From: an uncultured Acidobacteriota bacterium
Lineage (GTDB): Bacteria > Acidobacteriota > Blastocatellia > RBC074
DNA length: 64,000 nucleotides
NCBI GenBank assembly: GCA_963796275.1
Contig: CAWCKY010000004.1
Span: 1,056,001-1,120,000 of the forward strand
Direction of reading: 5' to 3'
Of the stretch, positions 18,409 to 60,920 are shown piece by piece (position 1 is the first letter of the stretch; the number at the start of each line of letters is the position of its first letter). The translations under genes were made by a program, and so were the position numbers. The notes below the pieces were generated by a model that did not search any database, was not told the origin of the DNA, and worked only from the letters and a program-made list of their open reading frames with translations.

Positions 18409-18505
18409 ATTGATAGTTGATAGTTGAGAGTTGATAGTTCGTATCGATTGATGCCACAGTCTCTACAAACTATCAACTTTCAACTATCAATTATCAACTA
18501 TCATT
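18409..18505. repeat. Inverted heptamer array (TTGATAG)n...(CTATCAA)n
   Basis: About 4-5 units per arm around a ~28-nt spacer. Confidence 0.85.
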
Positions 18506-18513
18506 GATTAGTC

Positions 18514-20400
18514 CTATTGATTGACGACATTGACGGTCAACGTCCGTTGCCCGGAAATGACGAATTCTGCCGGTGGAAGTTCTTTTTCAAAAATGGTAGA
18601 CGAGCGCGTCAAAGTATATCCGCCCGCTGTGCGATCGGAACCGAGCGTGGCCAGAACCGAGGGCGGCAAGCCGGGCATCTCCTCGTTTTTAATGACGGCG
18701 CCGCTTTCTGATCGCGCTAAACGCACATACAACCGGTCGAATTTGCGGAGGCGGTTAATCTCGCGCACCAGTTGATCGAGAGATTTCGGCGTGAATCCGG
18801 TACGCGATTCGGCGGCTTGAAGTGCCCTGCCGTCGCTGACTACGATCTGCAGAGGACCGAGCGGCGCATCATCGGGTATTTCAACCTCCGTCCGTTCGAC
18901 GAATTCATCCCCATCATCGGTACGCGCGAATGCCTGAATCTCCACCTTTTCTCCGCGCCTGACGTCCGTCCGGTTAATCCATAAGCGATCGAGCTGCCCC
19001 GTACTGAGAGCATCGCGTGAGGTGATGTCATAGGTGAGTTTTTCGAACTGCAGGTTCTTGAATCCGCTGTTGAACAACGTGCTGACCGGCTGCGAGACCG
19101 CAAAGGCGGCTGCCAGGGGCGCATTGAGCGAAACCGAGAGACGATTCTCGAGGTTTATCTCCTGCTGGTTTTTGAGCTTGATCCTTCCGCGCATCTCCAA
19201 AGTCGAATCGCCGACCGCTCGCTCGGTCGTCGTGATCGTCGAGAGTACCGTCATCTGCAAGATGATCGGCGTCAGGAAACGATCGACGACTACTTCAAAA
19301 TTATATGTTTGATTGTTGCCGCGGCTCGTCTTCAGGTTGATCTCCACCGGGATAATGCGCGGAGCGACGCCCAGTTCGCCGAAAATGCCCGTCGAACGAT
19401 CGCCACGCATCGTACCGACCATCGCCGTCGGGTAAGAGACCTTGAATGAACTCGCCGCCGATGACATGACGGTGACGACTTCTCCCTCGTGCATCGGGAA
19501 CTCCGAGACGCCGAGCTGTAGAAACGGATGCCCGAATGCATAGATGCGGTTTCCGTCGCGATAGGTGACGGTTCCGGCGGCCGCCAGTGAATAATCGCCG
19601 CGGACGAGCGGAACGACGACAGTCGATCCGGGCTTCAATGTGTCCGCATCGGCTTCCTTCAATTGCGTTATATCGGCTGCACCCGAAACGCCGGCGACCG
19701 GAGAAAATCCCCACGACTGGAAGAGAGGAGCGAAGCGCGCCACTACATCCGGGGCGACGCCCGTGATCGCCAGCGGCGTCGCAATAGGCATCAATATCTG
19801 TGCCCCCTGCGGAGCTGCAACTGCCTGTGCCCCGTGCGGTCCCGATCCGTTTATGTTTTTGATAAATTCGGTGAATTCGCGCGAATTTTCATTGAATGCT
19901 ATCTCCGAGAACGAGACCGAGCGCGGCTGCTCGAGTTGAGGGTCTTTTTGTTCAGGTACTTGTTTCTGCTCGAATACATCGATCATATGTTGGATCGGCG
20001 TGATCCCGGCGATCGGCTCTTTGGCGAAGTTATATCCGAAGGCGATGGCGCCCAGCAATTTGCCGTCAATATATACCGGCGAACCGCTCATCCCCTGAAA
20101 GACGCCCGTATGCTGAAGCTCGTCACCCAATAATCTGGATAGGACCGCGCTCTGTTGGGGATTGGGAAAGCCTTTCAGCACGCCGAGTATCTCGAGCTCG
20201 AACGGCTTCGGCTCACTGCCCACAAAGACCGTGTAGCCAGTGGCCCTCATACCAGGCTTCACATTCGCTATGGGGAAAAACCTTTCTTTCGGTATATCTT
20301 TTATAGGTTGCTTCTCTTTTTCGACATTCTGTCCGGAAGCGGATAAAATTATCGCTATAAGAAGCGAGACAAGCAGCTTAAACTTCAGCAATCGCCTCAT
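18514..20400 (-). CDS. SpoIVB-type peptidase S55 domain protein, exported
   Basis: Signal peptide; catalytic-serine motif QGMSGSPVYIDGKLLGA; AFGHPF motif. Confidence 0.9.
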   Translation of the reverse strand: MRRLLKFKLLVSLLIAIILSASGQNVEKEKQPIKDIPKERFFPIANVKPGMRATGYTVFVGSEPKPFELEILGVLKGFPNPQQSAVLSRLLGDELQHTGVFQGMSGSPVYIDGKLLGAIAFGYNFAKEPIAGITPIQHMIDVFEQKQVPEQKDPQLEQPRSVSFSEIAFNENSREFTEFIKNINGSGPHGAQAVAAPQGAQILMPIATPLAITGVAPDVVARFAPLFQSWGFSPVAGVSGAADITQLKEADADTLKPGSTVVVPLVRGDYSLAAAGTVTYRDGNRIYAFGHPFLQLGVSEFPMHEGEVVTVMSSAASSFKVSYPTAMVGTMRGDRSTGIFGELGVAPRIIPVEINLKTSRGNNQTYNFEVVVDRFLTPIILQMTVLSTITTTERAVGDSTLEMRGRIKLKNQQEINLENRLSVSLNAPLAAAFAVSQPVSTLFNSGFKNLQFEKLTYDITSRDALSTGQLDRLWINRTDVRRGEKVEIQAFARTDDGDEFVERTEVEIPDDAPLGPLQIVVSDGRALQAAESRTGFTPKSLDQLVREINRLRKFDRLYVRLARSESGAVIKNEEMPGLPPSVLATLGSDRTAGGYTLTRSSTIFEKELPPAEFVISGQRTLTVNVVNQ

Positions 20401-20623
20401 CAGATCAGTACCTCAACAGTTGTAATTTTCTCGCTTACGAGATGCAATGCTAGAGCAATATAACACATTAAATCGACCTTTGCGGTCTAATCCAGTAATC
20501 CATTGTGAATTGTTTGGCGATAGACCCGGGCCGTCATGGATGGAAACAGTGCATTGAGAGACAGGGGACTAGGAGCTGACGGCTAATGAAAAACTTCAGA
20601 AAATATCCTGAACTTGGAATAAA

Positions 20624-21259
20624 ATGACAGATTTTCCCGTAACAAAATTCATGATCGCGGGCTTCATACAAGCGGGCGGGCGTAGTTCGCGTATGGGGAC
20701 AGATAAGGCATGGCTGGAGATAGAGAATCGACCGATGATCGAGAGAGTGCTCATAGAGACGAAGCCGATCGTCGATGATCTTTCGATTATCGTCAATGCA
20801 ACCAACCCTCATCTCGGCCGCTACCGGAGTCTGGCTGAGGAATACGATGCAAAAGTGATACTTGACCTGCACGACCACCGTGGTCCGCTCGGCGGAATCG
20901 GCACAGCACTGATCCACTGTGGGGATGCGCAATCCGCATTTATCCTGGCCTGCGACATGCCATTCATAACGACCGAGTTCATCGCCTTCCTCGTCGATCT
21001 TCATCAGCGTGAAGCAAATCAAGTCACCGTGCCGGTCGACCGGCAGGAACGATTACAGCCTCTGGCGGGTATTTATTCGACAGCTTGCCTCCCAATGGTC
21101 GAGCGGCTCTTAGATACAGATGAGCTGCGCGTGGATAGTCTTTGCCGACTTGCGAAAACACGGCGAGTCGCGTTTGCCGAGTTCTCAAACCTGGCAAATG
21201 CGGAGAGGCTTTTCATCAATATTAATTCGATGGAAGAGTACGGGGTAATCGAAAAGTGA
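20624..21259 (+). CDS. mobA: Molybdenum cofactor guanylyltransferase
   Basis: AGGRSSRMGTDKA, GPLGGI, ACDMPF, NINS. Confidence 0.92.
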   Translation: MTDFPVTKFMIAGFIQAGGRSSRMGTDKAWLEIENRPMIERVLIETKPIVDDLSIIVNATNPHLGRYRSLAEEYDAKVILDLHDHRGPLGGIGTALIHCGDAQSAFILACDMPFITTEFIAFLVDLHQREANQVTVPVDRQERLQPLAGIYSTACLPMVERLLDTDELRVDSLCRLAKTRRVAFAEFSNLANAERLFININSMEEYGVIEK

Positions 21260-21365
21260 CGATGTAACCCTAATAGACGCAGATATTTCCCTTGCGTCCT
21301 TGCTTAACGGCGATGACGACCCCACAATGTTGTAATCATCCGACTTCGAATTAACATTAACCCCC

Positions 21366-21439: not shown

Positions 21440-24288
<2,849 letters not shown>

Positions 24289-24526
24289 TAAGCCTTTGAT
24301 TTCTAATCTCGATGCAATAGCATTGAGTTATAACCCATCACATCGTCGCTAAGCACGAAGAAGGCGCACATTTAGTGCATGTATATTGTTAAATGACGAG
24401 GTTTCCGCAGCCCAACACGGGCTAGATTCTCAATCCCCCTTCGGGTTAAAGATTCGAATAACTATATTCTTAAATGCTATAGAATTGCGCCATTGATAAA
24501 CTGAAAAATGAAAGTGACTGTTCAGC

Positions 24527-25065
24527 CTCTTCGCCGAGTTAGCGGCGGCAGGCTCTTCGCCGAGTTAGCGGCGGCAACCTTTCGCCGAGTTAGCGGCGGC
24601 AGGCTCTTCGCCGAGTTAGCGGCGGCAACCTCTTCGCCGCGTTAGCGGCGGCAGGCTCTTCGCCGAGTTAGCGGCGGCAGGCTCTTCGCCGAGTTAGCGG
24701 CGGCAGGCTCTTCGCCGAGTTAGCGGCGGCAACCTTTCGCTGCGTTAGCGGCGGCAGGCTCTTCGCCGAGTTAGCGGCGGCAGGCTCTTCGCCGAGTTAG
24801 CGGCGGCAGGCTCTTCGCCGAGTTAGCGGCGGCAGGCTCTTCGCCGAGTTAGCGGCGGCAGGCTCTTCGCCGAGTTAGCGGCGGCAGGCTCTTCGCCGAG
24901 TTAGCGGCGGCAGGCTCTTCGCCGAGTTAGCGGCGGCAGGCTCTTCGCCGAGTTAGCGGCGGCAGGCTCTTCGCCGAGTTAGCGGCGGCAGGCTCTTCGC
25001 CGAGTTAGCGGCGGCAGGCTCTTCGCTGCGTTAGCGGCGGCAACCTTTCGCCGCGTTAGCGGCGG
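24527..25065. repeat. Tandem array of 26-bp unit CTCTTCGCCGAGTTAGCGGCGGCAGG (21 copies of the core, no spacers)
   Basis: Counted 21 TTAGCGGCGG cores; minor variants; the last copy is the left end of the adjacent REP doublet. Confidence 0.95.
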
Positions 25066-25226
25066 TTGATTGTAGCCGTGGGTTTTAACCCACGGAAGGC
25101 TTGAAGGATATTCCGCGTCGCGTTAGCGACGCCTGAATTCAAACGTCGCTGACGCGACGTGATAAAATCTACCGCCACCGTGGGTTAAAACCCACGGCTA
25201 CAATCAACCGCCGCTAACGCGGCGAA
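25047..25226. mobile_element. GTAG-REP doublet (REPIN/MITE-like), copy 1
   Basis: 49-bp perfect terminal IR (25047-25095 / 25178-25226) containing GTAG + CCGTGGG-TTTTAA-CCCACGG palindrome; near-identical inverted copy at about 57527-57727. Confidence 0.85.
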
Positions 25227-25307
25227 GCGGCTGAAGCAGTTAATTTCAGTTTTTTAGTTTTCAGCTGAGCTGTCTCGATCAGCAACTAAAAACTAAAAAC
25301 TAAAAAA

Positions 25308-26087
25308 ATGAAAACTGTTATTCTCTGCGGCGGACGCGGCACGCGCCTGGGCGAGCACGGTGCAGCCGTCCCGAAAGCATTGATCAAAATCGGCGAGCGT
25401 CCACTGCTCTGGCACCTGCTTAAAATCTATGCTCACCACGAGCTGAATGAATTCGTTCTTTGCCTGGGCTATCTCGGAGACGCGATAAAGCGCTATTTCC
25501 TGGAGCATCACTGGCTCTACGCCGATTTCTCGCTCAAAATGAGTAATACCGGCGATTACCTCTTGCACAAACAGGAAGCGCCGAGCGAGGATTGGAATAT
25601 CACGTTCGCGGAGACTGGGCTCAATACCAATACCGGCGGTCGCATCAAACTGATTGAGAACTACATCGGTGACGACCAGACTTTCTGCGTGACATACGGC
25701 GATGGGCTGGCGGACATCGATCTACCAGCATTGATCGAATTCCATCGAAGTCACGGAAAGCTTGCAACGCTCACCGCTGTGCATCCCCGTTCCAGCTTCG
25801 GATTGCTGAAAGTCGATGAAGATAATGCGATAACCGAATTTGTAGAGAAGCCGGTGATGAAGGAATGGATCAATGGCGGCTTTTTCGTCTTCAATCGCGG
25901 AGTGTTCAATTATCTGACCGATGACTGCGTGCTCGAACGCGAACCATTCGAACGTCTCTCACAAGCGCGCGAGCTGATGGCCTATTCTCACACCGGCTTC
26001 TGGAAATGTATGGACACTTATAAAGACAATGTCGAATTTAACCAGCTCTGGGACGCAGGTCAGGCGGAGTGGAAAGTGTGGGAATGA
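25308..26087 (+). CDS. rfbF: Glucose-1-phosphate cytidylyltransferase-like nucleotidyltransferase
   Basis: [36 protein letters not shown]. Confidence 0.88.
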
Positions 26088-26092
26088 GATCG

Positions 26093-26213
26093 GTTTTCAG
26101 TTTTCAGTTTTCAGTTTTCAGTTTTCAGCATGATTAGTTTTTCAGGCGATTTCAAAAAAGACTACAACTAAAAATCTGAAATTTAAAATCTAAAATTTAA
26201 AATCTAAAATCTG
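26093..26213. repeat. Heptamer arrays (TTTTCAG)5...(AAAATCT/AAAATTT)n
   Basis: Fills the rfbF-dehydratase gap; the two arms use different heptamers. Confidence 0.85.
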
Positions 26214-26215
26214 TA

Positions 26216-27194
26216 ATGCCTTCTTTCTGGAACAACCGCACAGCTTTCATCACCGGGGCGACCGGCTTCATCGGCGCGCACGTCGCCAGAAAGCTGGTCG
26301 AAGCCGGGTCTCGCGTCGTCTGTCTGCAGCGCGACGGGGTGCGCGCCAATTCCCTCGATCTTTTCGACCTGCGCCGCCGCGTCACGGTCATCAACGGATC
26401 GGTCGAGGATTTTGCGCTGATCGAGCGCATCCTCAACGAGTATGAGGTCGAGGCAGTTTTCCATCTCGCCGCTCAGGCGATAGTTGGCGCGGCCAACCGC
26501 TCGCCCATCTCGACATTCGAAACCAACATCCGCGGCACTTACTCGCTCCTGGAGGGCTGCCGTCAAAGCCCGCTGATCAAAAGCGTCGTAGTCGCGTCGA
26601 GCGATAAGGCGTATGGGGCACAACAGAATCTGCCATACACTGAAGACTATCCGCTGCACGGGCTTTTTCCCTACGACGCATCGAAAGCCTGTACTGACAT
26701 ACTGGCGCGATCGTACGCGCACACCTACAAAACACCGGTAGTCGTCTCGCGCTTCGCTAATATTTACGGACCCGGCGATATGAACCTTTCCCGCGTCATT
26801 CCGGGGACGATCGTGTCGGTCCTACGCGACCAGCCTCCCGTCATTCGCAGCGACGGGACGCCCATCCGCGAGTTCGTTTACGTTGATGACGTGGCAAACG
26901 GCTATCTGCTGCTCGCTGAAAAAATCGATGGAGTTATTGGTGAAGCTTTCAACTTCGGCGCGGGCGAGCAAGTAACGATGCGCGATCTGGTAGAAAGAAT
27001 AATCAAACTCTCCGGCAAGAATTTGAAACCGAATGTCCTGCTTCAGAAAAAGATCGAGCGCGAAATCGACGCGCAGTACCTGTCATCCGAAAAAATAGAG
27101 AAGAGATTGGGATGGCGGGCGAAAAATGATTCTCGATGCGGGGCTGCGCTTGACGATGGAATGGTACCGCGAGCATTTACCTGAAATTTCGTAA
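26216..27194 (+). CDS. NDP-sugar 4,6-dehydratase (RfbG/GDP-mannose dehydratase-like); frameshift in A-run near 27125
   Basis: [26 protein letters not shown]; removing one A restores a typical end [22 protein letters not shown]. Confidence 0.85.
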
Positions 27195-27203
27195 GGAGGA
27201 AAA

Positions 27204-28148
27204 ATGAGCCTAACCCGCCGCAATCTACTCAAACAGAGCCTGGCCGGCGCCGCCGCGCTCTCTACCGCCACAACGCTGAAAAATACCGATGTTTTCCCGA
27301 TTCAATCGACAACCACACCGCCGCGGATACGGATCGGGGTATCGACATATTCCTACTGGCATTTTGATAAAGTGAAATATCCCATCGAGAAAGTCATCGA
27401 GAATGCGGCGCGGCTCGGGTTCGATGGCGTTGAAATCCTACATCGGCAGATGGAGAGCGAAGATCGCAAGTACGTGAACAGTCTCAAGCGAATGGCTTTC
27501 TCACTCGGTCTCGATCTGTTTTTTCTCTCAATTCATCAAAACTTCGTATCGCCGGACCCGGCCAAAAGGCAACAGCACATCGATCACACGAAACGCTGCA
27601 TCGATCTGGCTCAGCAACTGGGATGCCCGGCAATCCGGTTGAATTCAGGCCGATGGGGAACTATCCCCGAATTTCAGAAGATGCTCGACGCGGGGGGTAA
27701 AGAAGCCCCGATAGAGGGTTACACCGATGACGATGCGTTTAAATGGTGCATCGAATCGATCAACGATTGCATTCCTCACGCCGAACAGGCGGGCGTCATT
27801 ATGGCACTCGAAAATCACTGGGGATTGACGACTTCGGTCGATGGATTGCTGCGAATCTTCAAGGGCGTCAATTCGCCCTGGCTGTGCATCAACCTCGACA
27901 CCGGAAATTTCGTAGGCGATCCGTACCCACAACTCGAAAAACTAGCCCCTCACGCCATCGTAGTGCAGGCGAAGACTTATTATGGGGGTGGCGTGTATTA
28001 CACGCGTGAGCTCGACTATAGCCGAATCGCCAAAATATTGCGCAATGCGAATTTCAAGGGATATGTCTCGCTCGAGATGGAGGGGAAAGAGTCGGCGGAT
28101 GAAGCCGTCTCTAAGAGTCTGAAGGTGTTGCGTGAAGCCTTTGCGTGA
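27204..28148 (+). CDS. Tat-exported sugar phosphate isomerase/epimerase (xylose isomerase-like TIM barrel)
   Basis: TRRNLLK Tat motif; GFDGVEI, ALENHWG, NLDTGNF, SLEMEG. Confidence 0.88.
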
Positions 28149-28818
28149 TCGTTCGGTAGCCGGTCTTCTCTCCCAAATAGCTGTATATCATCCCAGCTAT
28201 CAAGTCATAGAGGAAATGCAGAAACATCGCCGGAATTAGAGAACCGGTGAACCAGACTATGACATGAAATGCGATCGCGAAGCCGAAGATCGCGGTTATG
28301 CTGGCCCAGCCCTGCATGTAATGGCTGACGGCGAAGATGATCGAGGCGATCAATGCCGCTACCCATAATGATCCCGTCAATTGCGTTAACAAGACCCACA
28401 TCACACCGCGATATGTGATCTCTTCGCCGATCCCTGCCGCCACCGAGATGAAGACCCAGAGCGATTTCTCGGCCGCATCGCCGGGCATAAAGAGATATAC
28501 CATCGGTTCACGATTATCGACATTGCGCCTCCAACGCGGGAGCATCAACGCGATAGCCGCGGTGAAGACGATTGCGACGATAGCGCTCGATTGAATGGGT
28601 TGCTGCGGCAGTTCGAGCAGAGGAATTTTTTCAAGCCGGGCCACCGCCACGGTCGCACCGATAAAGAAAAGATGTTGCAACAGTACGCCGATGTAAAATC
28701 TGCGGCGCGGCGGGTAAGGAAATAAGTAGAGTTTTGCGGCGGATCGGTAAGCCGCCCAGGGGAGCACCAACCCGAATAAGATCAAATGGCAGTAGCCCGC
28801 TGCACCAATCGTCTGCAT
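28111..28818 (-). CDS. CPBP (CAAX/Abi) intramembrane metalloprotease
   Basis: [18 protein letters not shown] motifs; TM helices. Confidence 0.85.
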
Positions 28819-28877
28819 CGCCAGCAGAGTTTAGGTGTGAGAACCCGATCTTTCAAGCCTACCGCTGGATAAGAAGA

Positions 28878-29002
28878 GATTCACCACAAAAAAACAAAAA
28901 AGACAAAGAGCACAAAGTAGGAAGAGAAGTCCCTTTTGTGTCGGCCATCGCCACCACCCCGCACATTTTCCTTTTGTACTTTTGTGTTCTTTGGAGTGAA
29001 TC
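28878..29002. repeat. 9-mer-type inverted repeat element
   Basis: ATTCACCACAAA..ACAAAAA..GCACAAAG / TTTTGTACTTTTGTGTTCTTTGGAGTGAAT. Confidence 0.7.
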
Positions 29003-29009
29003 CCTCCTA

Positions 29010-29774
29010 GCACCGAAAGTCATAATCATCAACGAAACGCTGGCCCGACGCTTCTTTGCCGGCGAGAACCCGATCGGTCACCGGTTGTTCTCTGAACCAA
29101 ACAAGATGACGATTGTCGGAGTGGCAGGCGACACGAGTAATCGCGGTTTAGACCAGGAGGTTCAGCCTGAGGTTTATACTCCGTACGTGCAAGATCTGAA
29201 GGAGATAGGAGGCTTGCGCCTGGTGGTGCGAGCCTCCTTCGATCAAAACAATCCGACCAGTACCTCCGTTTTATCAAACCTGCCTACATCCATACGCAAT
29301 CAAGTGCGAGCAATCGAGCCAAACGAGGCGGTCAATCAGGTCGTCAGAATGGATGAACTACTGTCGAATTCGGTGGCGTGGCGGCGCTTCCAGATGCTCT
29401 TGCTCGGCGTCTTCGCCGCAGTCGCGCTCGTCATCGCAACGGTGGGAATTTACGGCGTCATCTCGTATGCCGTCAGCCAACAAAAGCATGAGATCGGCAT
29501 CCGGATGGCACTGGGCGCGCAGGCGAGCGATGTGTTGCGGATGGTGATCTGGAGAGGAATGAGCCTGGCGCTGATCGGCGTGGCGCTGGGCTTGGCGGCA
29601 GCATTCGCGCTCACGCGCGTCATGAAGAATCTGCTCTTCGAAGTGAGCCCTACCGATCCGATGACCTTCATGCTCATCGCGTTGCTGCTGATCGTCGTCG
29701 CGCTGATCGCCAGCTACATCCCGGCGCGGCGCGCAACCAAGGTCGATCCACTCCAGGCTCTGCGCCACGAATGA
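29010..29774 (+). pseudogene. 3' fragment of an ADOP/MacB-type ABC permease
   Basis: Begins at [16 protein letters not shown] with no start or RBS; [10 protein letters not shown] and [18 protein letters not shown]; about 255 aa vs 803 aa for the paralog at 39185-41596. Confidence 0.8.
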
Positions 29775-29947
29775 GACGGCTCTATTTTCATTTTCATCCG
29801 TGAAGTCCCCTCACTTGGCCTCTCAAGAACTGCTGTATAAACAGACCGACCTCAGATATATTTTGAATCGTCGCATTATTACGGACTCGTCAGATCGGTC
29901 CCGGCGATCTGACGAAACCGCAGTTCTCAACTTACAGATAATTCTTA

Positions 29948-31390
29948 ATGGAGATTCTTGTGCCGGAAGAGAAAAGTTTTCACATGCCGATCGATGAGTT
30001 TCGCCGTAATGGCCATGCCGTGGTGGACTGGATCGCCGATTATTTTGAGCGCATCGAATCGCTGCCCGTGCTTTCACAAGTAAAACCAGGTCAGGTTCGC
30101 GCATCGCTCACCAACGATCCTCCCGTTACGGGCGAGCGATTCGAAGACATCCTGGACGATTTTGACAAGCTCATCCTGCCCGGCATCACGCACTGGCAGT
30201 CCCCGAGTTTTTATGCCTATTTCCCCACCGGAGTCTCCGGCCCATCTATCCTCGGAGAGTTGCTCTCCGCGGGTCTGGGAGTGCAGGGAATGCTGTGGGC
30301 CACCAGCCCCGCTTGCACCGAACTGGAGACGCACGTCCTGGATTGGCTGGTGGAGATGCTCGCGCTGCCTCAGAAGTTTCTCTCCACGGGCGCCGGCGGA
30401 GGCGTGATTCAGGATACGGCTTCGAACGCCTCTCTATGCGCCCTCCTGGCCGCACGCGAGCGCGCGACCGACTTCGCCAGCAATCAGCGCGGGTGCGACG
30501 GGAAGCTCGTCGCTTACACCTCTTCACAGGCCCATTCTTCATTGGAGAAAGCCGCACAGATCGCAGGTATCGGCCGGCAAAATCTGCGAGTGATCGAGGT
30601 CGACGAGAAGTTCGCCATGCGTACTGACGCGCTCGCCCATCGAATTGAGCACGATCGCCGTGCGGGGCTGATCCCGTTCTTCGTTTCCGCCACCGTTGGA
30701 ACGACCTCTTCCAATGCTATTGATCCGTTGGCCGAAATCGGCCGCATGTGCCGCGAACAGAATCTATGGCTGCACGTGGATGCGGCCATGTCCGGGACGG
30801 CTGCGCTCTGCCCCGAATTCCGTTATATCCACGACGGCCTGGAATTCGCCGACAGTTATTGCTTCAACCCGCACAAGTGGATGTTCACGAACTTCGATTG
30901 CGATTGCTTCTATGTGGCTGATCGAAAGGCGCTGATACAGACTTTGAGCGTACTTCCGGAATTTCTTCGTAATCGGGCTACCGAATCGGGTGCGGTCATC
31001 GATTATCGCGACTGGCAGATTCCGCTCGGCCGGCGCTTCCGTGCGCTCAAGCTGTGGTTCGTGATTCGTCACTACGGCGTTGAAGGATTGCAACATCACA
31101 TACGCCGCCACATCGAACTGGCGCAGCAATTTGCCGCCTGGGTCAAGGAGGACGGCCGTTTCGAGATGGCCGCCCCCGCGCCCTTGAACCTGGTGTGCTT
31201 CCGCCTTAAGGGCGGAGATGAGATCAATCAGGCCCTGATGGAGAAACTGAACGCCAGCGGCGATCTCTATCTGACGCACACTCGTTTGGACGACCGCTTT
31301 ACTCTGCGCCTGTGTGTGGGCCAGGCTAATACCGAAGCACGCCATGTGCGACAAGCCTGGGATAAGATCCGAGCGACAGTTTCAAGCTAA
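29948..31390 (+). CDS. Aromatic-L-amino-acid (group II PLP) decarboxylase
   Basis: THWQSPSFYAYFP, SPACTELE, AHSSLEKA, HVDAA, NPHKW, GRRFRALKLW. Confidence 0.92.
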   Translation: MEILVPEEKSFHMPIDEFRRNGHAVVDWIADYFERIESLPVLSQVKPGQVRASLTNDPPVTGERFEDILDDFDKLILPGITHWQSPSFYAYFPTGVSGPSILGELLSAGLGVQGMLWATSPACTELETHVLDWLVEMLALPQKFLSTGAGGGVIQDTASNASLCALLAARERATDFASNQRGCDGKLVAYTSSQAHSSLEKAAQIAGIGRQNLRVIEVDEKFAMRTDALAHRIEHDRRAGLIPFFVSATVGTTSSNAIDPLAEIGRMCREQNLWLHVDAAMSGTAALCPEFRYIHDGLEFADSYCFNPHKWMFTNFDCDCFYVADRKALIQTLSVLPEFLRNRATESGAVIDYRDWQIPLGRRFRALKLWFVIRHYGVEGLQHHIRRHIELAQQFAAWVKEDGRFEMAAPAPLNLVCFRLKGGDEINQALMEKLNASGDLYLTHTRLDDRFTLRLCVGQANTEARHVRQAWDKIRATVSS

Positions 31391-32685
31391 TCATTAATTG
31401 CCTGGTATGCCAGTTGTTTGAATTCGCTCCCATAAGTGAGCCCGGTATGGGGCAGAATTTGAACCATAAAAATACCGATCATCTCTTCTTTGGGATCTAT
31501 CCAGAAACGCGTGCCCGCCGCCCCGCCCCAGTTGTATTCGCCTTGCGAACCGATCGCGCCGGTCTTTCCGACACCTCGGTTGACGGCGAAGGTGAGGCCG
31601 AACCCGTAGCCCCGCTGCAAAAGAGGCGTGGCGATCGGAATATCTCCCAGATGATCGGCGCTCATCAACTCGACGGTCTTACGGCTCAGGATTCGCATGT
31701 CGTCGAGTTCGCCCCCATTGACCAGCATCTGGCAGAACCGGGCGTAATCCATCGTGGTAGAGACCAAGCCTCCGCCGCCTGACAGTAATTTACGAGGTTT
31801 CTTGTAGCTCTCCTGCGGCGGCCCGGCGTGGCGTTTGATCGTCCTATCTTCGTTAGGGGTATAGAGCGTGACCAGCCGATCCCATTTCTCTTGCGGCACG
31901 AAGAACCCCGAATCGATCATCCCCAGAGGTTTGAAGATTCGATCAGCGAAGAATTGATCGAGCGTCTTGCCGGAAACGACCTCGATCAACCGACCGAGCA
32001 CATCCTGCGATATGCTGTAATCCCACACCGTGCCCGGTTGGTGAACGAGCGGAACTTTGGCGGCGCGTTTGACGGCCGCTTCGATCGTTATCTCGGGATC
32101 CATTACGCCCGCTTTGGCAAACATAAACTCGCCCTTTTCATCGCGCGGCCCGGAGTAGTTCATTCCCGATGTGTGACGCAATAGATCGCGGATCGTAATT
32201 TCGCGCTCCGCGGGCACGGTATAAACGGTGCGTCTGCCCGTTCCCGCGTCGGTCTTCTCGACAGCTACTTGCATCTTGCCGAGTTCGGGTACGAATTTCG
32301 AGACAGGGTCGTTGAGGGAGAACTTGCCCTCTTCGTAAAGAATCATGGTCGCTACTCCGGTGACGGCTTTGGTCATCGAGTAGATGCGAAAGATCGCGTC
32401 TTTGCGCATCGGTTTGGAGGATTCTTTGTCCATCATTCCCCACGTTTCGAAATAACCGAGCTTTCCGCGCCGCGCGATCATGCCGATCGCGCCAGCGATC
32501 CGGTTTTCCGCGATATGTTTTTGCATCACCGCTCCGATACGGTCGAGGCGCTCTTTCGACAGCCCGGCCTCTGCGGGAGTAGCCGGCGTCAATCCCTTGC
32601 CGTTGGGATTGTCCGACGTTACGCCAACCGCAGGAGTCAGCAAGAGCGCGAAACAGGTCAACAGGTATATGATCGTACGGGTCAT
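31387..32685 (-). CDS. Serine hydrolase, beta-lactamase/EstB family, exported
   Basis: FRIYSMTK (SxxK), LLRHTSG, WDYS, WGGAAGT. Confidence 0.9.
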   Translation of the reverse strand: MTRTIIYLLTCFALLLTPAVGVTSDNPNGKGLTPATPAEAGLSKERLDRIGAVMQKHIAENRIAGAIGMIARRGKLGYFETWGMMDKESSKPMRKDAIFRIYSMTKAVTGVATMILYEEGKFSLNDPVSKFVPELGKMQVAVEKTDAGTGRRTVYTVPAEREITIRDLLRHTSGMNYSGPRDEKGEFMFAKAGVMDPEITIEAAVKRAAKVPLVHQPGTVWDYSISQDVLGRLIEVVSGKTLDQFFADRIFKPLGMIDSGFFVPQEKWDRLVTLYTPNEDRTIKRHAGPPQESYKKPRKLLSGGGGLVSTTMDYARFCQMLVNGGELDDMRILSRKTVELMSADHLGDIPIATPLLQRGYGFGLTFAVNRGVGKTGAIGSQGEYNWGGAAGTRFWIDPKEEMIGIFMVQILPHTGLTYGSEFKQLAYQAIND

Positions 32686-32767
32686 CGTTATCTCCTTTTT
32701 TTATTTTTAAATCCTCGTTTCTTCTCAGACCCGATGATGGACGTTGAAAAATAGATGAAACTTCTCA

Positions 32768-32936
32768 AAGTCCCAACGACGTCAGTCGGAGGATCGATAA
32801 GGTCCAGCCTTCAATGTCTCACAGGTTGGACTTTAAATATCCACCGACTGCCGTCGGTGGGATTTGGTGAAAACTAAACCGGCTTGCGTATGGGTTGAGA
32901 CTTAACCATCCACCGACACTGCAGTCGGTGGGATTA
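32768..32936. repeat. REP-like cluster of three CCACCGAC..GTCGGTGG hairpins
   Basis: ATCCACCGACTGCCGTCGGTGGGATT plus two degenerate copies, one inverted; inner IR GTCCAGCCT/AGGTTGGAC. Confidence 0.7.
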
Positions 32937-33046
32937 AGGAGGCAGCTATTTTCAAAGACCATCACCAAGTTTAGAAGTTACCGATCTCACGGATTTGGGT
33001 GTACGATTTCGCGAGGCCTGACAACTAGAAACCCTTACTCCCCTCT

Positions 33047-34816
33047 TCATTTCTGCTTTTCCTCTTTAAACATTTTTCCCAGATCGGGGTTTCGCTCGAT
33101 GAGGGACTCGCGAAAAATAGCGGTGTAGACGGCGAGCTTGTTGCTCGGCGCGGTGCAAAGGGCGGCTATTTCACGAGCCAGACGGTAATGATGAAGTTTA
33201 GCCGCCCCTATCGCAATTGCGGCTAATCGTGTTGATTTCTCTGAACCCCAGGCGATCTGCTGGGCAGCGATTTGCGCTTCATTGAGAGTGCTTTTAGCTT
33301 TACCCGCCTCGCGATTTCTTGTCATCGCCTCAGCGACGCTGACCATAGCCTGAGAGCGATAGCCTGCATCATCGATCTTCTGGGCCGATGCGAGCGCCTC
33401 GTCCGTCCTGCCGGCAGTTGTCAGCGCTTCGACCAGGTTGGCCATCACCCGAGAGCGATAGTATGCATTATCGATCTGGCGGGCCGATACGAGCCCCTCA
33501 TTGGCAACCTGCAGCGCCTCTTCCGTATTGCCGGCCTTCTCCAGCGCTTTGACGATGCCAGCCATAAGCATAGAACGAGAGTATTCATCCTCTATCTTGC
33601 GGGCCGATTCGAGCGCCCCTCCCGACTTACCTGCCTCCCCCAAGGCCTCGACAATACCAACCATATGTACAGAACGAAGGTACGCATCATCAATTTTACC
33701 GGCTGATTCGAGGGCCTCGTTGGCTGCCTGCCGCGCTTCGTCCGTCCTTCCGGCCTTCCCCAACGCTCCGACGATGCTGGCCATCGCCCAGGAGCGGGGG
33801 GAATCATCCTCGATCTTGCGGGTCGATTCGAGCGCCTCGTGGGCAACCTGCAGCGCCTCTTCCGGCTTGCCAGCCTTCACCAGCGCTTCCACGATGCCAG
33901 CCATGAGCGTAGAGCGAGAGTATTCATCCTCGATAAGGCGAGCCGATGCGAGCGCCTCGCCGATCTTGCCGGCCTTGGTCAGCGCTTCGATGACGTTGAC
34001 CATCGCCAGAAAGCGATAGGCCTCATCCTGGATCTGACGGGCTGATTCGAGCGCTTCACCGGTAACCTGCTGCGCCTCATCCGTCTTGCCGATCTTCTCC
34101 AGCACTTCGACGATGCTGACCATCACCCGGGAGCGGAGGTCGGCATCGGAAATTTTGCGGCTCGATTCGAGCGCTTCGTGGGCGATCGGTAGCGCCTCGT
34201 CTGTCTTGCCGGCCCTCCCCATCGCTTCGACGATTCTGGCCATCACCCGAACGCGGAGGTCTTCATACACGATCTCGCGGGCCGATTCGAGAGCCTTTTC
34301 GACAGCCAGCTGCCACCGTTCCGTCTGGCCGAGCCTCGTCAGAGCTTCGACGATGCTGACCATCACACGAGAGCGGGGGATTGCATCGACTATCTTGCGG
34401 GTCGATTCGAGCGCCTCGTGGGCAGCCTGCAGCGCCTCGTCCGACTTGCCGTCCCTCTCCAACGCTTCGGCGATGTTTACTAATCCCCGGGAACGGTATT
34501 CTGCATTTCCGATCTTGCGGGCCGATTCGAGCGCCTCATTCGACTTTCCAAGTATGACCAGTGTCCGTAACCAGGTTTCTACAATTTCGAATCCTTCTCC
34601 CTCTTTCTCAATAGCTATCAACTTCACCAACTGTGAGGACTCGAAAAGGACCTTATCGATTTGTGATTCAATCCTGTTATCCCAGAGATCCCAACCGATC
34701 GCCGCCAGCACGGCGATGATCGCTAATATCGCGTTAGTCAACATCGGACCGCGCCGTTTTCCGGCGGTCAGCTCACGATTTTGAAAAATTTCTGGCTTCT
34801 CCGGATTCATAGCCAT
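33047..34816 (-). CDS. Membrane-anchored alpha-helical (TPR-like) repeat protein; start uncertain
   Basis: One TM segment, then about 12 repeats of 40 or 33 aa, consensus ALESARKIxDxxxRSxxMxxIVEALxKAGKxDE. Confidence 0.75.
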   Translation of the reverse strand: MAMNPEKPEIFQNRELTAGKRRGPMLTNAILAIIAVLAAIGWDLWDNRIESQIDKVLFESSQLVKLIAIEKEGEGFEIVETWLRTLVILGKSNEALESARKIGNAEYRSRGLVNIAEALERDGKSDEALQAAHEALESTRKIVDAIPRSRVMVSIVEALTRLGQTERWQLAVEKALESAREIVYEDLRVRVMARIVEAMGRAGKTDEALPIAHEALESSRKISDADLRSRVMVSIVEVLEKIGKTDEAQQVTGEALESARQIQDEAYRFLAMVNVIEALTKAGKIGEALASARLIEDEYSRSTLMAGIVEALVKAGKPEEALQVAHEALESTRKIEDDSPRSWAMASIVGALGKAGRTDEARQAANEALESAGKIDDAYLRSVHMVGIVEALGEAGKSGGALESARKIEDEYSRSMLMAGIVKALEKAGNTEEALQVANEGLVSARQIDNAYYRSRVMANLVEALTTAGRTDEALASAQKIDDAGYRSQAMVSVAEAMTRNREAGKAKSTLNEAQIAAQQIAWGSEKSTRLAAIAIGAAKLHHYRLAREIAALCTAPSNKLAVYTAIFRESLIERNPDLGKMFKEEKQK

Positions 34817-35017
34817 ATCGGAATCTGCAAGGAATATCGGCGTGCGGTACAACGTGGGGATTATAAGCCCTCGCTGTTCTTTCGCCTCAGCCAAAAATAC
34901 AATTTCAAAAGATCGACAATTTTTTCCAAGCCGACTAACATACACTCGGCGGCGGCGCGGTTATCGAATTCCAGATCGCAGGGGCCGCCATTAATTGATT
35001 TCCGGAGGATTCACAAG

Positions 35018-35602
35018 ATGAAGATTTCTGTAATGCTTTCTCTGATCTGGCTCTTGCTGCCAGTCGTGGCCTTTGCCCAGACGACTGCATCAGCGGAAGA
35101 TCAGATTGCGTCCGCCATCCTCGCAGCTCCCGAAGAGCGGCGAGAGGGTGCAACTGTCCTGGGCTATGATGCGCAAGGCAAAATTGTGACGCTGCGCAAG
35201 GGCAGCAACGATCTGATCTGCCTCTCGGACAAGCCCACCGACAATAAGTTCAGCGTTGCCTGCTACCACAAGGACCTCGAACCCTTTATGGCTAGAGGCC
35301 GCGAGCTTGAAGCCCAGGGAATTTCCGGCAATGAGCGGAACGAGAAACACCGATGGAAGGAGATCAAGGAGGGAAAACTTCCGATGCCGCGCGAACCTCG
35401 GATGCTCTATGTGCTCTCCGGCAAAGGCTACGATGCTGCAAGCGGCCAAGTAACCAATGGTTCTTTACGCTGGGTGATCTACTTGCCCTTTGCAACAGGA
35501 GAATCCACCGGATTGTCGACCAAGTCGAAGCGAGGCGAGCCGTGGCTGATGGATGCCGGGACGGCTGGCGCTCACATCATGATCACACCCCCAGGTAAAT
35601 GA
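35018..35602 (+). CDS. Hypothetical exported protein
   Basis: GGAGG RBS, signal peptide MKISVMLSLIWLLLPVVAFA; Cys pair; PWLMDAGTAGAHIMI end. Confidence 0.75.
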   Translation: MKISVMLSLIWLLLPVVAFAQTTASAEDQIASAILAAPEERREGATVLGYDAQGKIVTLRKGSNDLICLSDKPTDNKFSVACYHKDLEPFMARGRELEAQGISGNERNEKHRWKEIKEGKLPMPREPRMLYVLSGKGYDAASGQVTNGSLRWVIYLPFATGESTGLSTKSKRGEPWLMDAGTAGAHIMITPPGK

Positions 35603-35624
35603 ATCTCACTCGAATCTCGCTCGT

Positions 35625-36695: not shown

Positions 36696-36705
36696 AAGGA
36701 CAAAA

Positions 36706-36811
36706 GTCATTTTACATTTATCATTTTACATATGTCATTTGACATTAATTGCATCCTTCAGGGACGAACAAATGACAAATGACAAGTGTAAAATGATATA
36801 TGTAAAATGAA
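36706..36811. repeat. Inverted heptamer array (TCATTTN/ACATTTN)n...(AAATGAN/AAATGTN)n
   Basis: 7-bp periodic arms between convergent genes. Confidence 0.8.
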
Positions 36812-36835
36812 AGACGCGAATTCAGTGTTTATTTG

Positions 36836-37939
<1,104 letters not shown>

Positions 37940-37983
37940 TATGATTGAAGTGAATTTAACCCAAGCTGAAAAAGGATGCTATC

Positions 37984-39060: not shown

Positions 39061-39184
39061 TTCGGTTGTCGGTAGTCGGTTGTCAGTTGTCGGTCGGCGA
39101 TTCGTAGTTAACAAGTCATGGTCAACTAGCAAAACACTATGAGCAATTGATTGCGAACCGCCAACCGTCAACCGTCAACCGCCC
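39061..39184. repeat. Inverted heptamer array (CGGTTGT)n...(CAACCGT)n
   Basis: Arms start right after the stop codons of two convergent genes. Confidence 0.8.
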
Positions 39185-41596: not shown

Positions 41597-41810
41597 AAAA
41601 ATTTTAGATTTTAGATTTTAGTTTTAAAATTTTAGATTTAAAATTTTATCCTTGAGCAGCATCCGTAGGCTAAATCGCAGGTCTTGCAACTTATCTCACT
41701 CCAAGAGACGAAAATTTAGATTTTAGATTTAGATTTAGATTTAGATTTAGATTTAGATTTAGATTTAAAATCTAAAATCTAAAATCTAAAATCTAAAATC
41801 TAAAATTTTC
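41597..41810. repeat. Heptamer/hexamer arrays (TTTTAGA)/(TTTAGA)n...(TCTAAAA)n enclosing a 46-bp duplicate of the permease 5' end
   Basis: 41549-41594 vs 41645-41690 identical at 43/46. Confidence 0.88.
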
Positions 41811-41820
41811 AGGTTTTGAA

Positions 41821-50221: not shown

Positions 50222-50310
50222 GACGTTCGATCGATGACCTCGCCTAAAATGACAGCCCGCCAGGAACAAAAACCCGGCGGGAACGGGAGATTTGAGATTT
50301 GCTGATGATT

Positions 50311-50691
50311 ATGAGGTTTCTACATAAATTATTCCCGATCTCAAATTTCAACTCGAACATCGCCCCCTCATCATCAGGCGAATCTGAGCTACCTGAAGAC
50401 GAAGACCCATTCGATGAGCCCGTCCGGCTTGAAATTCGCGATGTGATCGATCTGCACACCATCCCTCCGAAACAGGTGAAAGCCGTCTGCGAAGAGTATC
50501 TCAAGGAAGCGCGGACGAAGGGATTTCGGTTCGTGCGGATCATCCATGGCAAAGGCATCGGGGTGCAGCGTGAAATAGTGCGTAAAGTTCTCGATCGCAC
50601 GGGGTTCGTGTCGAGTTATTACGATGCGCCTCCGGAGGCGGGTGGGCTCGGGGCGACGATTGCCGAGCTTGATCTTGATAAAACTGGTTGA
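50311..50691 (+). CDS. Smr/MutS2-like small domain protein
   Basis: IDLHT..RIIHGKGIG..GGLGAT; start uncertain. Confidence 0.85.
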   Translation: MRFLHKLFPISNFNSNIAPSSSGESELPEDEDPFDEPVRLEIRDVIDLHTIPPKQVKAVCEEYLKEARTKGFRFVRIIHGKGIGVQREIVRKVLDRTGFVSSYYDAPPEAGGLGATIAELDLDKTG

Positions 50692-57446: not shown

Positions 57447-57915
57447 AATAGTTTTCAGTTTTTAGTTTTCAGTTTTCAGTTGCTGATCGAGACAGCTCAG
57501 CTAAAAACTGAAAACTGATATTAACCGCTCAGCCTTTTCGCCGCGTTAGCGGCGGTTGATTGTAGCCGTGGGTTTTAACCCACGGTGGCGGTAGATTTTT
57601 TTCACGTCGCGTCAGCGACGGTTGAATTCAGGCGTCGCTAACGCGACGCGGGAATATCCTTCAAGCATTCCGTGGGTTAAAACCCACGGCTACAATCAAC
57701 CGCCGCTACGCGGCGAAAAGGCTGAGCAGTCACTTTTAGTTTTTCAGTTTTTAGCGTCTTCAATCGTCTTTCGAGACCACATATCTGAAAACTGAGAAAC
57801 TAGAACCTGAAAACTATTTTTCAGTTTTTAGTCTTCAATCCTCGTTCGAGACCATATAACTGAAAGCTGAAATACTAGAAACTGAAAACTGAAAACTAAA
57901 AACTGAAAACTGTTT
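57447..57915. repeat. Heptamer arrays (TTTTCAG)n/(CTGAAAA)n flanking a REP doublet; includes a tandem ~85-bp duplication
   Basis: Three inverted-array units whose spacers all contain TCGAGAC. Confidence 0.85.
57527..57727. mobile_element. GTAG-REP doublet (REPIN/MITE-like), copy 2, inverted relative to copy 1
   Basis: Near-identical reverse complement of 25047-25226; long terminal IR. Confidence 0.85.
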
Positions 57916-57916
57916 T

Positions 57917-59329: not shown

Positions 59330-59368
59330 AGTACGAAAACCCTGGCTTACGATTTTGAGGAGTGTGTG

Positions 59369-59986
59369 ATGAGAAGACTGAAAATATTATTACTTGTTCT
59401 CCCCATCTTTCTACTTGGCGCGCAGCAAGCACAGCAGCGTCGCGATCCGCAGGAGTATATCAAGCGACTCGAGGCGGAGCAGCGCGTCAAAGAGTTGCAG
59501 GTCGATCGGGTGGTTGAGACGCTCAAAATTTCACCGGGGCAGAAAATTGCCGATCTGGGTGCAGGATCGGGGCTCTTCACGCGCCCGATCGCCCGAAAGG
59601 TCGGAGAAACCGGGAAAGTCTTCGCCATTGACATCGACCCGGAGTTACTGAAACACATCGAAAAAACCGCGGATAATCCGGCCAACATCCGCACAGTACT
59701 GGGCGCAGAAGACGATCCGAATATCCCCGAGCGGGTTGATCTGATCGTAATTATCGACACGCTCCATCACATCCGTAACCGTGCAACTTATCTCAAGAAA
59801 TTGCGCGATTACCTGCAGCCTTCCGGGCGCATCGCCATCCTCGACTTCAGCAAGAACTGGCCGCAAGACCATGAGCAGATGAAATACGCGCTGGATGAAC
59901 TCGAGGGGTGGATGAAATCAGCAGGATACAAAAGGGTTGAAAAGCACGACTTCTTGAATAACAATTTCTTTGTAATCTATCAGTAA
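59369..59986 (+). CDS. Class I SAM-dependent methyltransferase with signal-peptide-like N-terminus
   Basis: ADLGAGSG, AIDID, DTLHH. Confidence 0.85.
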   Translation: MRRLKILLLVLPIFLLGAQQAQQRRDPQEYIKRLEAEQRVKELQVDRVVETLKISPGQKIADLGAGSGLFTRPIARKVGETGKVFAIDIDPELLKHIEKTADNPANIRTVLGAEDDPNIPERVDLIVIIDTLHHIRNRATYLKKLRDYLQPSGRIAILDFSKNWPQDHEQMKYALDELEGWMKSAGYKRVEKHDFLNNNFFVIYQ

Positions 59987-60005
59987 ACCATCAGGTCGTT
60001 CGCAT

Positions 60006-60753
60006 ATGGCCGCACCGATTGTCCCAATGCTGTGCATGTCGTTCCTCATATTCCACGGCTGCGCAATCCAGAAGCCTGAGGACTCAGCCGGTGGCGGATA
60101 TCAAACGAAAAACACATCCGAAGATGAATTCAAAGATGAGCGCCTGCAAATGGTCGATCGGCAGATACCGCGCCCGAAGGATCAATAACCAGGCAGTCCT
60201 GAATGCTATGAAGAAAGTCCCGCGCCACCGTTTCGTATCTGCAGAAAACGCCACTTCAGCTTACGAAGATTTTCCGCTGCCCATCGGTCAGGGCCAGACC
60301 ATATCTCAACCTTACATAGTCGCCTATATGACGGAGGCCGCCGAAATTTCTGATAATGACAAGGTATTGGAGATAGGCACTGGTTCCGGCTATCAGGCCG
60401 CCATCCTCGGCGAACTTGCCAAAGAGGTCTATACCATAGAGATCATACCCGAATTAGCCGAACAAGCGCGGCGGACGCTCGATGAACTCGGATACAAGAA
60501 CATAACGGTGAAGGCCGGCAATGGGTACGAAGGCTGGGCCGAACATGCCCCCTTTGATGGAATCCTGGTCACAGCCGCGCCGGATGAGGTTCCGCAAGCG
60601 CTGATCGATCAACTGGCGATGAACGGAAAGTTGATAATTCCGGTCGGTGCGGGGGACCAGGAGATGACGATTATCACGAAAACAGCCAAGGGCGTGATCG
60701 AGAAGCGAACTATACCCGTGAGATTTGTGCCGATGACGGGAAAACCAAAATAG
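60006..60753 (+). CDS. pcm: Protein-L-isoaspartate O-methyltransferase with lipoprotein-like leader; frameshift near 60168
   Basis: VPRHRFV, GQTISQPYIVA, LEIGTGSGYQAA, APFDGI, VRFVPM; ORF 60006-60188 supplies the N-terminus up to MVDRQI. Confidence 0.9.
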
Positions 60754-60920
60754 TTGATAGTTGATAGTTGATAGTTGATAGTTGATAGTTGATAGTTGAC
60801 ATACGCTTGGCAACAAGTGTCCGCGCTATCAACTACAACTACAACTACAACTACAACTACAACTACAACTACAACTACAACTACAACTACAACTACAACT
60901 ATCACTATCAACTATCAACT
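60751..60920. repeat. (TAGTTGA)7...(AACTAC)11(AACTATC)n inverted array overlapping pcm stop and miaA 3' end
   Basis: Direct count from sequence. Confidence 0.92.

Follow-up and report, generated by a model that had tools for sequence, protein, structure and literature searches.

Inverted heptamer arrays at gene ends of an uncultured Acidobacteriota bacterium and their possible relation to stems that enclose four-helix-bundle genes

The window analyzed here is a 64-kb stretch of the genome of an uncultured Acidobacteriota bacterium of the Blastocatellia (assembly GCA_963796275.1, contig CAWCKY010000004.1, positions 1,056,001 to 1,120,000). Among its genes are those of a sigma-54-dependent response regulator and of a duplicated permease, ADOP (TIGR03434, 919 bits); no tRNA genes were found. 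With these two genes, the Rfam match Acido-Lenti-1 and nearest loci in Blastocatellia bins, a cyanobacterial origin of the DNA was rejected. At nine places the DNA consists of tandem arrays of 7-nt units, mostly arranged as two inverted arms, and an earlier note made from the sequence alone had described these sites as a dispersed family whose period and polarity are conserved while its sequence is not. Combining Tandem Repeats Finder (TRF) with direct reading, we found period-7 arrays at all nine of the listed sites (Table 1). Every site lies between open reading frames (ORFs), the sole exception being a miaA frame that crosses the hexamer run at 60830-60920. Here, at 60829-60990, the frame closes with about 11 Cys-Ser pairs followed by a TGA stop, and the CAACTA hexamer leaves it open where a heptamer would not. 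The first 18 kb of the window (1-18400), which holds a heat-shock gene cluster (clpB, groEL, grpE, hsp20), contains no period-7 array despite several intergenic gaps.

Table 1. Array sites in the window, with predicted RNA folding of each (z scores relative to shuffles; folded interval, where it differs from the array coordinates, in parentheses)
Coordinates	Units and arms	Placement	RNA fold	Found by
18410-18439 / 18468-18503	Hairpin, TTGATAG (4.3 copies) / AACTATC (5.1 copies), 28-nt loop	Between two minus-strand genes; right end 10 nt from the stop of the 18514-20400 gene	-49.3 kcal/mol, z -9.95	TRF, direct reading
25245-25306	Hairpin, T-rich arm (25245-25265) and AACTAAA (3.3 copies)	Ends 1 nt before the ATG at 25308	Weak, z -2.05 (25240-25307)	TRF, reading
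26093-26128 / 26171-26212	GTTTTCA (5.1 copies) and AAAATCT (6 copies)	GTTTTCA array begins 5 nt past a stop; AAAATCT array ends 3 nt before the ATG at 26216	Absent, z -0.66 (26088-26215)	TRF, reading
36707-36746 / 36768-36810	Hairpin, AAATGAC type; arms of 40 nt, 90% complementary	Between convergent leuB-like and glycosyltransferase genes	-44.5 kcal/mol, z -10.5	TRF, reading
39062-39094 / 39156-39181	Hairpin, TCGGTTG (4.7 copies) / AACCGTC (3.7 copies)	Between convergent prepilin-peptidase and ADOP genes; occupies the whole gap, arms beginning 1 and 3 nt from the two stop codons	-49.6 kcal/mol, z -5.2	TRF, reading
41597-41810	Composite of four pieces: T-rich arm (41597-41648); copy of ADOP 5' end (41649-41700); ATTTAG, 8.8 copies (41714-41767); TAAAATC, 5.9 copies (41766-41806)	Between histidine-kinase stop and ADOP start	z -7.8 (41705-41812)	TRF (arrays 41598-41648 / 41766-41806), reading
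50287-50301 / ~50339-50352	Weak hairpin, GAGATTT (2 copies) and CTCAAAT-type arm	65 nt past serpin stop	Weak, z -2.6 (50283-50356)	TRF, reading
57447-57518, 57733-57817, 57818-57915	Three hairpins of the AGTTTTC / AACTGAA family	Block begins 4 nt past a stop and ends 1-4 nt ahead of the ATG at 57917	z -5.3, -5.9 and -3.2, in order (last: 57816-57916)	TRF, reading
60750-60799 / 60830-60920	ATAGTTG (7.1 copies) facing CAACTA hexamers (14.8 copies, 60830-60901), then CAACTAT heptamers	TAG stop of the PCMT gene sits in the first ATAGTTG unit	-56.3 kcal/mol, z -11.1, one bulge per unit	TRF, reading

TRF reported 13 rows of period 7 in the window against a mean of 0.15 in 20 dinucleotide shuffles of it, and exact runs of at least two periods were found at period 7 (five) and period 6 (two), with none in the window at periods 2-5, 8-11, 13 or 15. 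The wider sample consists of 41 loci of relatives (labeled in the manner of L001), found by an ADOP protein scan of species-representative genomes and not including the window's own genome; with the window they make up 663 kb. ADOP protein identity is 63-78% in 40 of the 41 loci and 39% in a Gemmatimonadota locus, and the relatives have the ADOP gene in common with the window while its neighbors differ. Most of the source bins are titled Blastocatellia, Pyrinomonadaceae or Acidobacteriota, and seven are titled as other phyla. The titles of bins L008, L013, L018, L021, L024, L025 and L027 (Heliobacteriaceae, Heliomicrobium or Clostridia) look mislabeled, and the ADOP permeases of these bins are 67-71% identical to that of the window and stand beside further ADOP paralogues. 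Counted over the 663 kb as TRF rows with at least three copies and at least 75% matches, period 7 (74 rows) is enriched over period 6 (20) and period 8 (3), a comparison that the earlier note had proposed genome-wide; period 9 gave 20 rows.

Seven of the 11 window hairpins fold as RNA at z scores of -5 or lower (-5.2 to -11.1), and of the remaining folds three are weak and one is absent. Two of the listed sites fit the original description in part. The array at 50287-50352 is present, but with only about two units per arm, and the site at 26093-26213 does hold two arrays in the claimed polarity but not an inverted unit, since GTTTTCA and AAAATCT belong to different unit families and are not complementary. 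As for the units themselves, the count of at least six different heptamers survives as six families, although TCTAAAA and AAAATCT differ only by rotation. The statement that sequence is not conserved went too far: unit families recur within and across genomes, with CTATCAA at two sites of the window, CTGAAAA/CTAAAAA at three or more and TCTAAAA at two, and with GTAGTCC/GTAGTCA at five sites of L010. By reading, most window units are one or two changes from C-T-N-N-[A/C]-A-[A/T]. An AA dinucleotide every 7 bp is a feature of the window but not of relatives' units such as CTGACAC and GACTACG. The relatives carry similar inverted heptamer hairpins built of other units.

By reading, all 11 hairpins of the nine sites open with their T/G-rich arm, and since arm order is invariant under reverse complementation, this polarity is a real property of the DNA and not an effect of strand choice. 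A pairing script joined 76 period-7 arrays of the window and the relatives into 27 inverted pairs, a few of which share an arm; the G/T-rich arm leads in 25 of them, both exceptions lying in L013. In a set of 31 hairpins (the script pairs plus six hand-added window pairs minus two duplicates), this arm comes first in all 17 hairpins that occupy gaps between co-directional genes, and the clear exceptions (two by G+T content, three by G-minus-C) all come from the 11 hairpins that separate convergent genes. Period, inversion and polarity are thus fixed together, as had been claimed.

With respect to genes, the 27 paired arrays lie between ++ genes (11), +- genes (10) and -- genes (3), three contexts being undetermined, and none of the 27 lies between divergent genes. 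Left arms mostly start -5 to +25 nt from a stop codon, with contexts and distances taken from a crude longest-ORF set of gene calls. In L001, L002 and L003, the hairpin opens with the stop codon of ADOP, TAG being its first triplet; at its other end, in L001 and L003, the complementary CTA overlaps the last bases of a convergent ORF. In L011 (12410-12560), a 15-nt unit (TAGATCAGCTCAAGG-like) is repeated about eight times after the ADOP stop, where other relatives have heptamer hairpins.

A possible relation of these hairpins to a gene family comes from outside the window. In L010, two ORFs are each enclosed by a GTAGTCC array on one side, which begins directly past an ADOP stop, and by a full GTAGTCC/CTACTGA hairpin on the other, and they sit behind different, distant ADOP paralogues. 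The full ORF (124 amino acids) matches PF05635 (23S rRNA intervening-sequence protein, E value of 7.5e-27) and TIGR02436 (four helix bundle protein), and the second, which is cut short by the array, is 96% identical to it over 81 residues. Both four-helix-bundle ORFs of the 663 kb are inside inverted arrays (2/2). Plasmid records were searched with the L010 protein and with an Azospirillum homologue, and the flanks of 25 genes were read, 14 of them from the first match list plus one neighbor and 11 from the second list, picked for taxonomic breadth. The hosts are cyanobacteria, Azospirillum, Riemerella, Treponema and Gemmatirosa, which span the phyla Cyanobacteriota, Bacteroidota, Spirochaetota, Gemmatimonadota and Pseudomonadota. 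Short-period arrays flank both sides of 24 of these 25 genes, the arms are at least 78% complementary over at least 14 nt in 22 cases, and in all 22 complementary pairs the upstream arm has more G than C. The check for ORF families enclosed by such arms, in which small four-helix-bundle proteins had been named first, was thus positive outside the window.

The Azospirillum copy (L052), with GAGGACG-type arms, lies inside a large-subunit (23S) rRNA gene (Rfam RF02541) and is therefore a classical intervening sequence. In 50 kb of Nostoc punctiforme pNPUN01, which served as a control, six of the seven period-7 arrays are at the two four-helix-bundle genes. Among proteins at least 74% identical (14 pairs), the repeat unit is by reading the same or similar in each pair, a result to be expected where arms and gene descend as one and not independent evidence. 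Some of the plasmid genes share a kind of site: in Anabaena sp. 90 (L043) and Pseudanabaena galeata (L049), four-helix-bundle genes of different subfamilies, with different repeat units, lie between cas6 and cas4, and in Picosynechococcus (L053), such a gene lies between cas10 and cmr3.

The causes that we considered for the polarity are of limited reach. Stops in all three frames were rejected as a cause of period 7 and polarity, TTTTCAG, TCGGTTG, AGGTGTC and AGATGTC being by reading without a stop triplet. The idea that a C-rich arm does not come first because Rho would load on it is weak; in its favor, the clear exceptions are confined to convergent-gene hairpins. Against it, G comes first in every complementary pair at the plasmid genes, 18 of these pairs being on cyanobacterial plasmids, and cyanobacteria, to our knowledge, lack Rho. 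A Shine-Dalgarno-like purine arm before an enclosed ORF would suit many cyanobacterial units (TCAGGAG, AGGAGTC, GAGGACG) but not those of the window. A ribosome binding site for an enclosed ORF, Rho avoidance and the leader composition of the downstream gene each fit only part of the data.

Comparison among copies suggests how the hairpins change. The two hexamer runs, ATTTAG at 41714-41767 and CAACTA at 60830-60901, are the local heptamer minus one base, expanded in one arm only, and they point to plain slippage as one ongoing process. The comparison of empty and filled sites was limited to the 3' end of ADOP because the relatives share this gene and not its neighbors. L002 and L003, with ADOP DNA 95% identical, have hairpins that are 94% identical and made of AGATGTC. 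In L001 (85%), AGGTGTC is found in every left-arm unit and the matching change in every right-arm unit, and L037 and L039 (84-86%) have no array at that gene end. The far edge of the hairpin (L002 4396-4492 vs L003 12425-12520) coincides with a synteny break, the sequence beyond it being unrelated. Whole hairpins also recur at separate sites. The one at 25245-25306 is an inverted, 93% identical copy of 57459-57514, loop included, and is accompanied by a 190-nt palindromic element, and in L010 two hairpins have 39-nt loops that are reverse-complementary to each other while two others share a loop in the same orientation. In the composite array, a near-copy of about 50 nt (41649-41700) of the ADOP 5' end (41551-41596) lies directly past the T-rich arm (by reading).

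Our preferred reading, in which we place about even confidence, is that the arrays of the window are intergenic "heptamer-stem" hairpins, the gene-less form of a stem that elsewhere encloses a four-helix-bundle gene (PF05635 / TIGR02436, Avd-like), including the roles of slippage, copying and RNA processing. Two inverted tandem arrays of one 7-nt unit, G/T-rich arm first, form a stem of 20-50 bp that fills the space from a stop codon to the next gene, and in RNA such stems would be long double-stranded segments at cistron boundaries. The arrays are likely to grow and shrink by replication slippage and may be shaped by homogenization between units and arms, and whole hairpins, with or without the gene, would occasionally be copied to new gene ends. 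In transcripts, the long stem may act as a processing or stabilizing site, probably for RNase III as in the intervening sequence, and not as a terminator.

Several observations weigh against this reading. A scan of the 663 kb with a hidden Markov model (HMM) made from 14 proteins of the family yields the two L010 ORFs and no others, so that more than 50 arrays there are without the gene nearby, and an HMM search of the six-frame translation of the window found no PF05635 gene or remnant in it. The association might also come about by insertion of the gene into hairpins that were already there. Nor can the 25 plasmid genes count as independent cases, because several are copies of one element family and 11 were picked for breadth, and at five of them (in Picosynechococcus, Gemmatirosa, Oscillatoria, Leptolyngbya and Brasilonema) the period is 8 and not 7. 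In 50 kb of N. edaphicum pNe_5, only 2 of 14 period-7 arrays are at the four-helix-bundle gene; several of the gene-less arrays there are made of the same unit, in another rotation, as the arms of the gene. The array pair at 26093-26212 forms no stem, and the cutting of these stems by RNase III is carried over by analogy. No copying enzyme adjoins any array among the 73 distinct proteins of the window and of array neighbors that were scanned, and nothing found explains period 7 or the fixed polarity. The same 73 proteins include no transposase, reverse transcriptase or HUH nuclease, and the window, which is also without a four-helix-bundle gene, does not demonstrate the active repeat-generating or mobilizing system that the earlier note had suggested.

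That heptamer arms enclose four-helix-bundle genes in many bacteria hints at a shared selfish element, and a wider form of the proposal can be stated tentatively, as a possibility to which we give less credence. Inverted arrays of 7- to 8-nt units would be the arms of an element widespread in many phyla, the full form of which carries an Avd-like four-helix-bundle gene and includes the 23S intervening sequences. The encoded protein would make, homogenize or move the arms jointly with an enzyme supplied in trans, and the hundreds of gene-less hairpins of Blastocatellia, Xanthomonas and cyanobacteria, including the short tandemly repeated repetitive (STRR) sequences, would be non-autonomous copies. 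A reverse transcriptase is suggested as an example of the trans enzyme because Avd works in this way in diversity-generating retroelements, and the PF05635 protein resembles Avd according to the part of the literature available to us (PMC10053308).

The rival that survives best, although we consider it rather doubtful, is that the arrays are plain microsatellites: slippage would favor 7-nt units, selection would keep hairpins at 3' ends as RNA stabilizers or terminators, the genes would prefer to land there and no mobile system would be involved. The one-arm hexamer expansions and the variation of copy number among related hairpins are what such a process would leave, most arrays have no gene inside, and aperiodic hairpins also follow ADOP stops in other relatives, e.g., L015 and L032. 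The heptamer excess and a polymerase-footprint idea for 7-nt slippage are in print, credited to Mrazek 2007 in the text accessible to us (PMC4692102, PMC4679880). However, slippage alone leaves unexplained that whole hairpins, loops included, recur at separate places, that one genome reuses its units at many sites, that the arrays of pNPUN01 concentrate at the two four-helix-bundle genes and that arrays are present in only some lineages. Nor are the arrays canonical terminators. Intrinsic terminators were rejected as a candidate, with none of the 11 terminator-like matches in 24000-43000 lying within an array and the total being below the shuffle mean of 21.3.

It is unlikely that the arrays are protein-binding sites on mRNA, G/U-rich after stops and A-rich before starts, which would control translation as proposed for TAACTGA in Beggiatoaceae and for which pairing would be secondary. 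This would suit the A-rich arms that end 1-4 nt ahead of the start codons at 25308, 26216 and 57917, and the pair at 26093-26212, which keeps its polarity without pairing. In L005 and L025, six of seven unpaired GATTGCG arrays come after a stop, on the sense strand, and TAACTGA repeats are reported to end 1 nt before starts in the Guaymas "Maribeggiatoa" genome in the portion of that study at hand (PMC4679880). On the other hand, at least six units would need many binding proteins or one of very loose specificity, and 10 of the 27 paired arrays lie between convergent genes, with no start codon following. At 36707-36810, variant units are mirrored from arm to arm, which indicates selection or copying at the level of the stem.

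Even less probable is that the arrays are elements like repetitive extragenic palindromic (REP) sequences or REPINs, moved by a RAYT-type transposase (HUH, Y1) whose gene lies elsewhere in the genome. The hairpins resemble that class: they are palindromes between genes, placed at 3' ends, they occur in either orientation, and a genome has many of them. Units in L010 and L017 contain GTAG, a hallmark of REP sequences. Yet the unit families in the 64 kb of the window number at least six, not one or two, and its units have no conserved 5' tetranucleotide. As for a MITE of a DDE transposon, the edges of the arrays are less sharp than a clean call of a target-site duplication would require. The absence of a Y1 transposase from the 73 scanned proteins also speaks against mobilization of this kind, but as weak evidence because RAYT genes are usually single-copy. 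Assembly or sequencing artefacts can be dismissed almost entirely: assemblies can collapse or inflate the copy number of perfect repeats, but gene ends show the same architecture in many assemblies made independently, and it is present in finished plasmids from cultured strains too.

The window also holds other repeats. A nested palindromic element of about 190 nt occurs at 25047-25234 and 57529-57720 in opposite orientation, 97% identical, each copy abutting a copy of the same heptamer hairpin and the second being surrounded by the hairpins at 57447-57915. The sole Rfam match in the window, Acido-Lenti-1 (57670-57715; 37.6 bits vs a gathering score of 37), lies in an arm of this element. As a general partner of the arrays the element was rejected, the relatives' loci holding only short pieces of it. 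At 24523-25065, a 26-nt unit is repeated 21 times (94% matches), and its sequence matches the terminal stem of the adjoining palindromic element. Within 24000-43000, 11 of 16 sigma-70-like promoter matches fall in A/T-rich arrays, with TAAAAT as the second hexamer, and several aim at the adjacent gene; these are consensus matches only. Elsewhere, a uvrA-like gene (21440-24288) appears broken into at least four frames, its UvrA_inter and ABC pieces falling in different ORFs, and is either a pseudogene or affected by local sequence errors, and a TPR protein gene (33047-34945) consists of 120-nt (40-residue) repeats of 60-77% identity.

Reports of tandem heptamers in bacteria go back to about 1990. 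Proteins of the four-helix-bundle / S23p family are common, and we know of no role for them outside diversity-generating retroelements. If heptamers and this family belong together, the origin of the one and the role of the other become testable at once. Heptamers are reported to be over-represented in bacteria and to have no accepted origin, as far as the available text of two studies goes (PMC4692102, PMC4679880). The hairpins also have a practical side: they mark gene ends, they can extend or cap reading frames such as miaA and they sit at synteny breaks such as that between L002 and L003, which makes them relevant to gene calling and to metagenome bin assembly.

The earlier note had regarded the arrays as its best candidate for an undescribed system, but the class is already in print, as inverted heptamer pairs at stop codons in Xanthomonas and as heptamers in the stem of the 23S intervening sequence of Coxiella. 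The arrays are an acidobacterial instance of this known, unexplained class, which also includes those of cyanobacteria. In the accessible part of their paper, Rehm et al. 2015 give a count of about 185 GGGAATC repeats per genome for two Xanthomonas genomes, with 70-75 convergent inverted pairs in each and a strong bias to the upstream stop codon, which they adjoin or overlap; length and sequence vary between close relatives, and the repeats are not tied to insertion sequences (PMC4692102). The likeness to the window is in period 7, intergenic position and inverted pairs beside a stop codon. Apart from the different phylum, X. campestris and X. axonopodis use one G-rich, quadruplex-capable unit, whereas the window has at least six mostly A/T-rich ones. 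No window unit has a run of three G, although some units of relatives do, e.g., AATGGGG in L001 and L002. The link to four-helix-bundle genes is not drawn in the portion of Rehm et al. that we consulted (PMC4692102), while other studies, likewise consulted in part, mention that the structure of a PF05635 protein of X. campestris has been solved (PMC4990558, PMC10053308).

The comparison with the tandem heptamers of cyanobacteria that the earlier note had made is apt. Both share period 7, several unit families per genome, intergenic position and the lack of a settled mechanism, and the cyanobacterial plasmid arrays examined here flank four-helix-bundle genes in inverted order. The name STRR and the original report are said to be those of Mazel 1990. 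Apart from the host, an acidobacterium here and cyanobacteria there, the two may differ in the frequency of inversion, since the inverted pairs that Rehm et al. report for Nostoc 7120 in the GGGGA(C/T)T class are only a few, in the text at our disposal (PMC4692102). TAACTGA direct repeats were described by MacGregor 2015 in Beggiatoaceae, cyanobacteria and Bacteroidetes, in sets of 2-6 copies of a single unit with one inverted case in 170, as stated in the available part of the paper (PMC4679880). These resemble the AACTGAA / AACTAAA arms of the window in period 7, intergenic position, a few bases before start codons, and in sense, and TAACTGA is one change from the window's AAACTGA; they differ in being almost always direct, short and of one unit.

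Like the window hairpins, REP sequences and REPINs are plentiful palindromes between genes, at 3' ends and within operons, that occur in either orientation and make up families within a genome. A genome typically has one or a few conserved REP palindrome sequences with a conserved 5' tetranucleotide, whereas the arms in the window are tandem 7-nt units of many unrelated families together, with no RAYT in the sequence scanned.

Closest to our preferred reading are the 23S intervening sequences. Warrier et al. 2016, in the part of the article open to us, describe two to three GACAGAT repeats ahead of the S23p ORF in the intervening sequence of Coxiella, with a strain-dependent copy number, and RNase III cuts its 28-bp stem in vitro (PMC4990558). 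This was the only paper linking the four-helix-bundle family to heptamers that was found in a literature search outside of which subscription journals lay. The intervening sequences of Coxiella and of Azospirillum (L052) share with the window hairpins inverted arms of tandem units, a long stem around a spacer and a position inside a transcribed unit. They lie in rRNA and enclose an S23p ORF, whereas the hairpins of the window lie between protein genes and enclose no ORF. The stem, with its inverted arms of short tandem units, is thus present in the window, and the enclosed PF05635 ORF, absent there, is present at both sites in L010.

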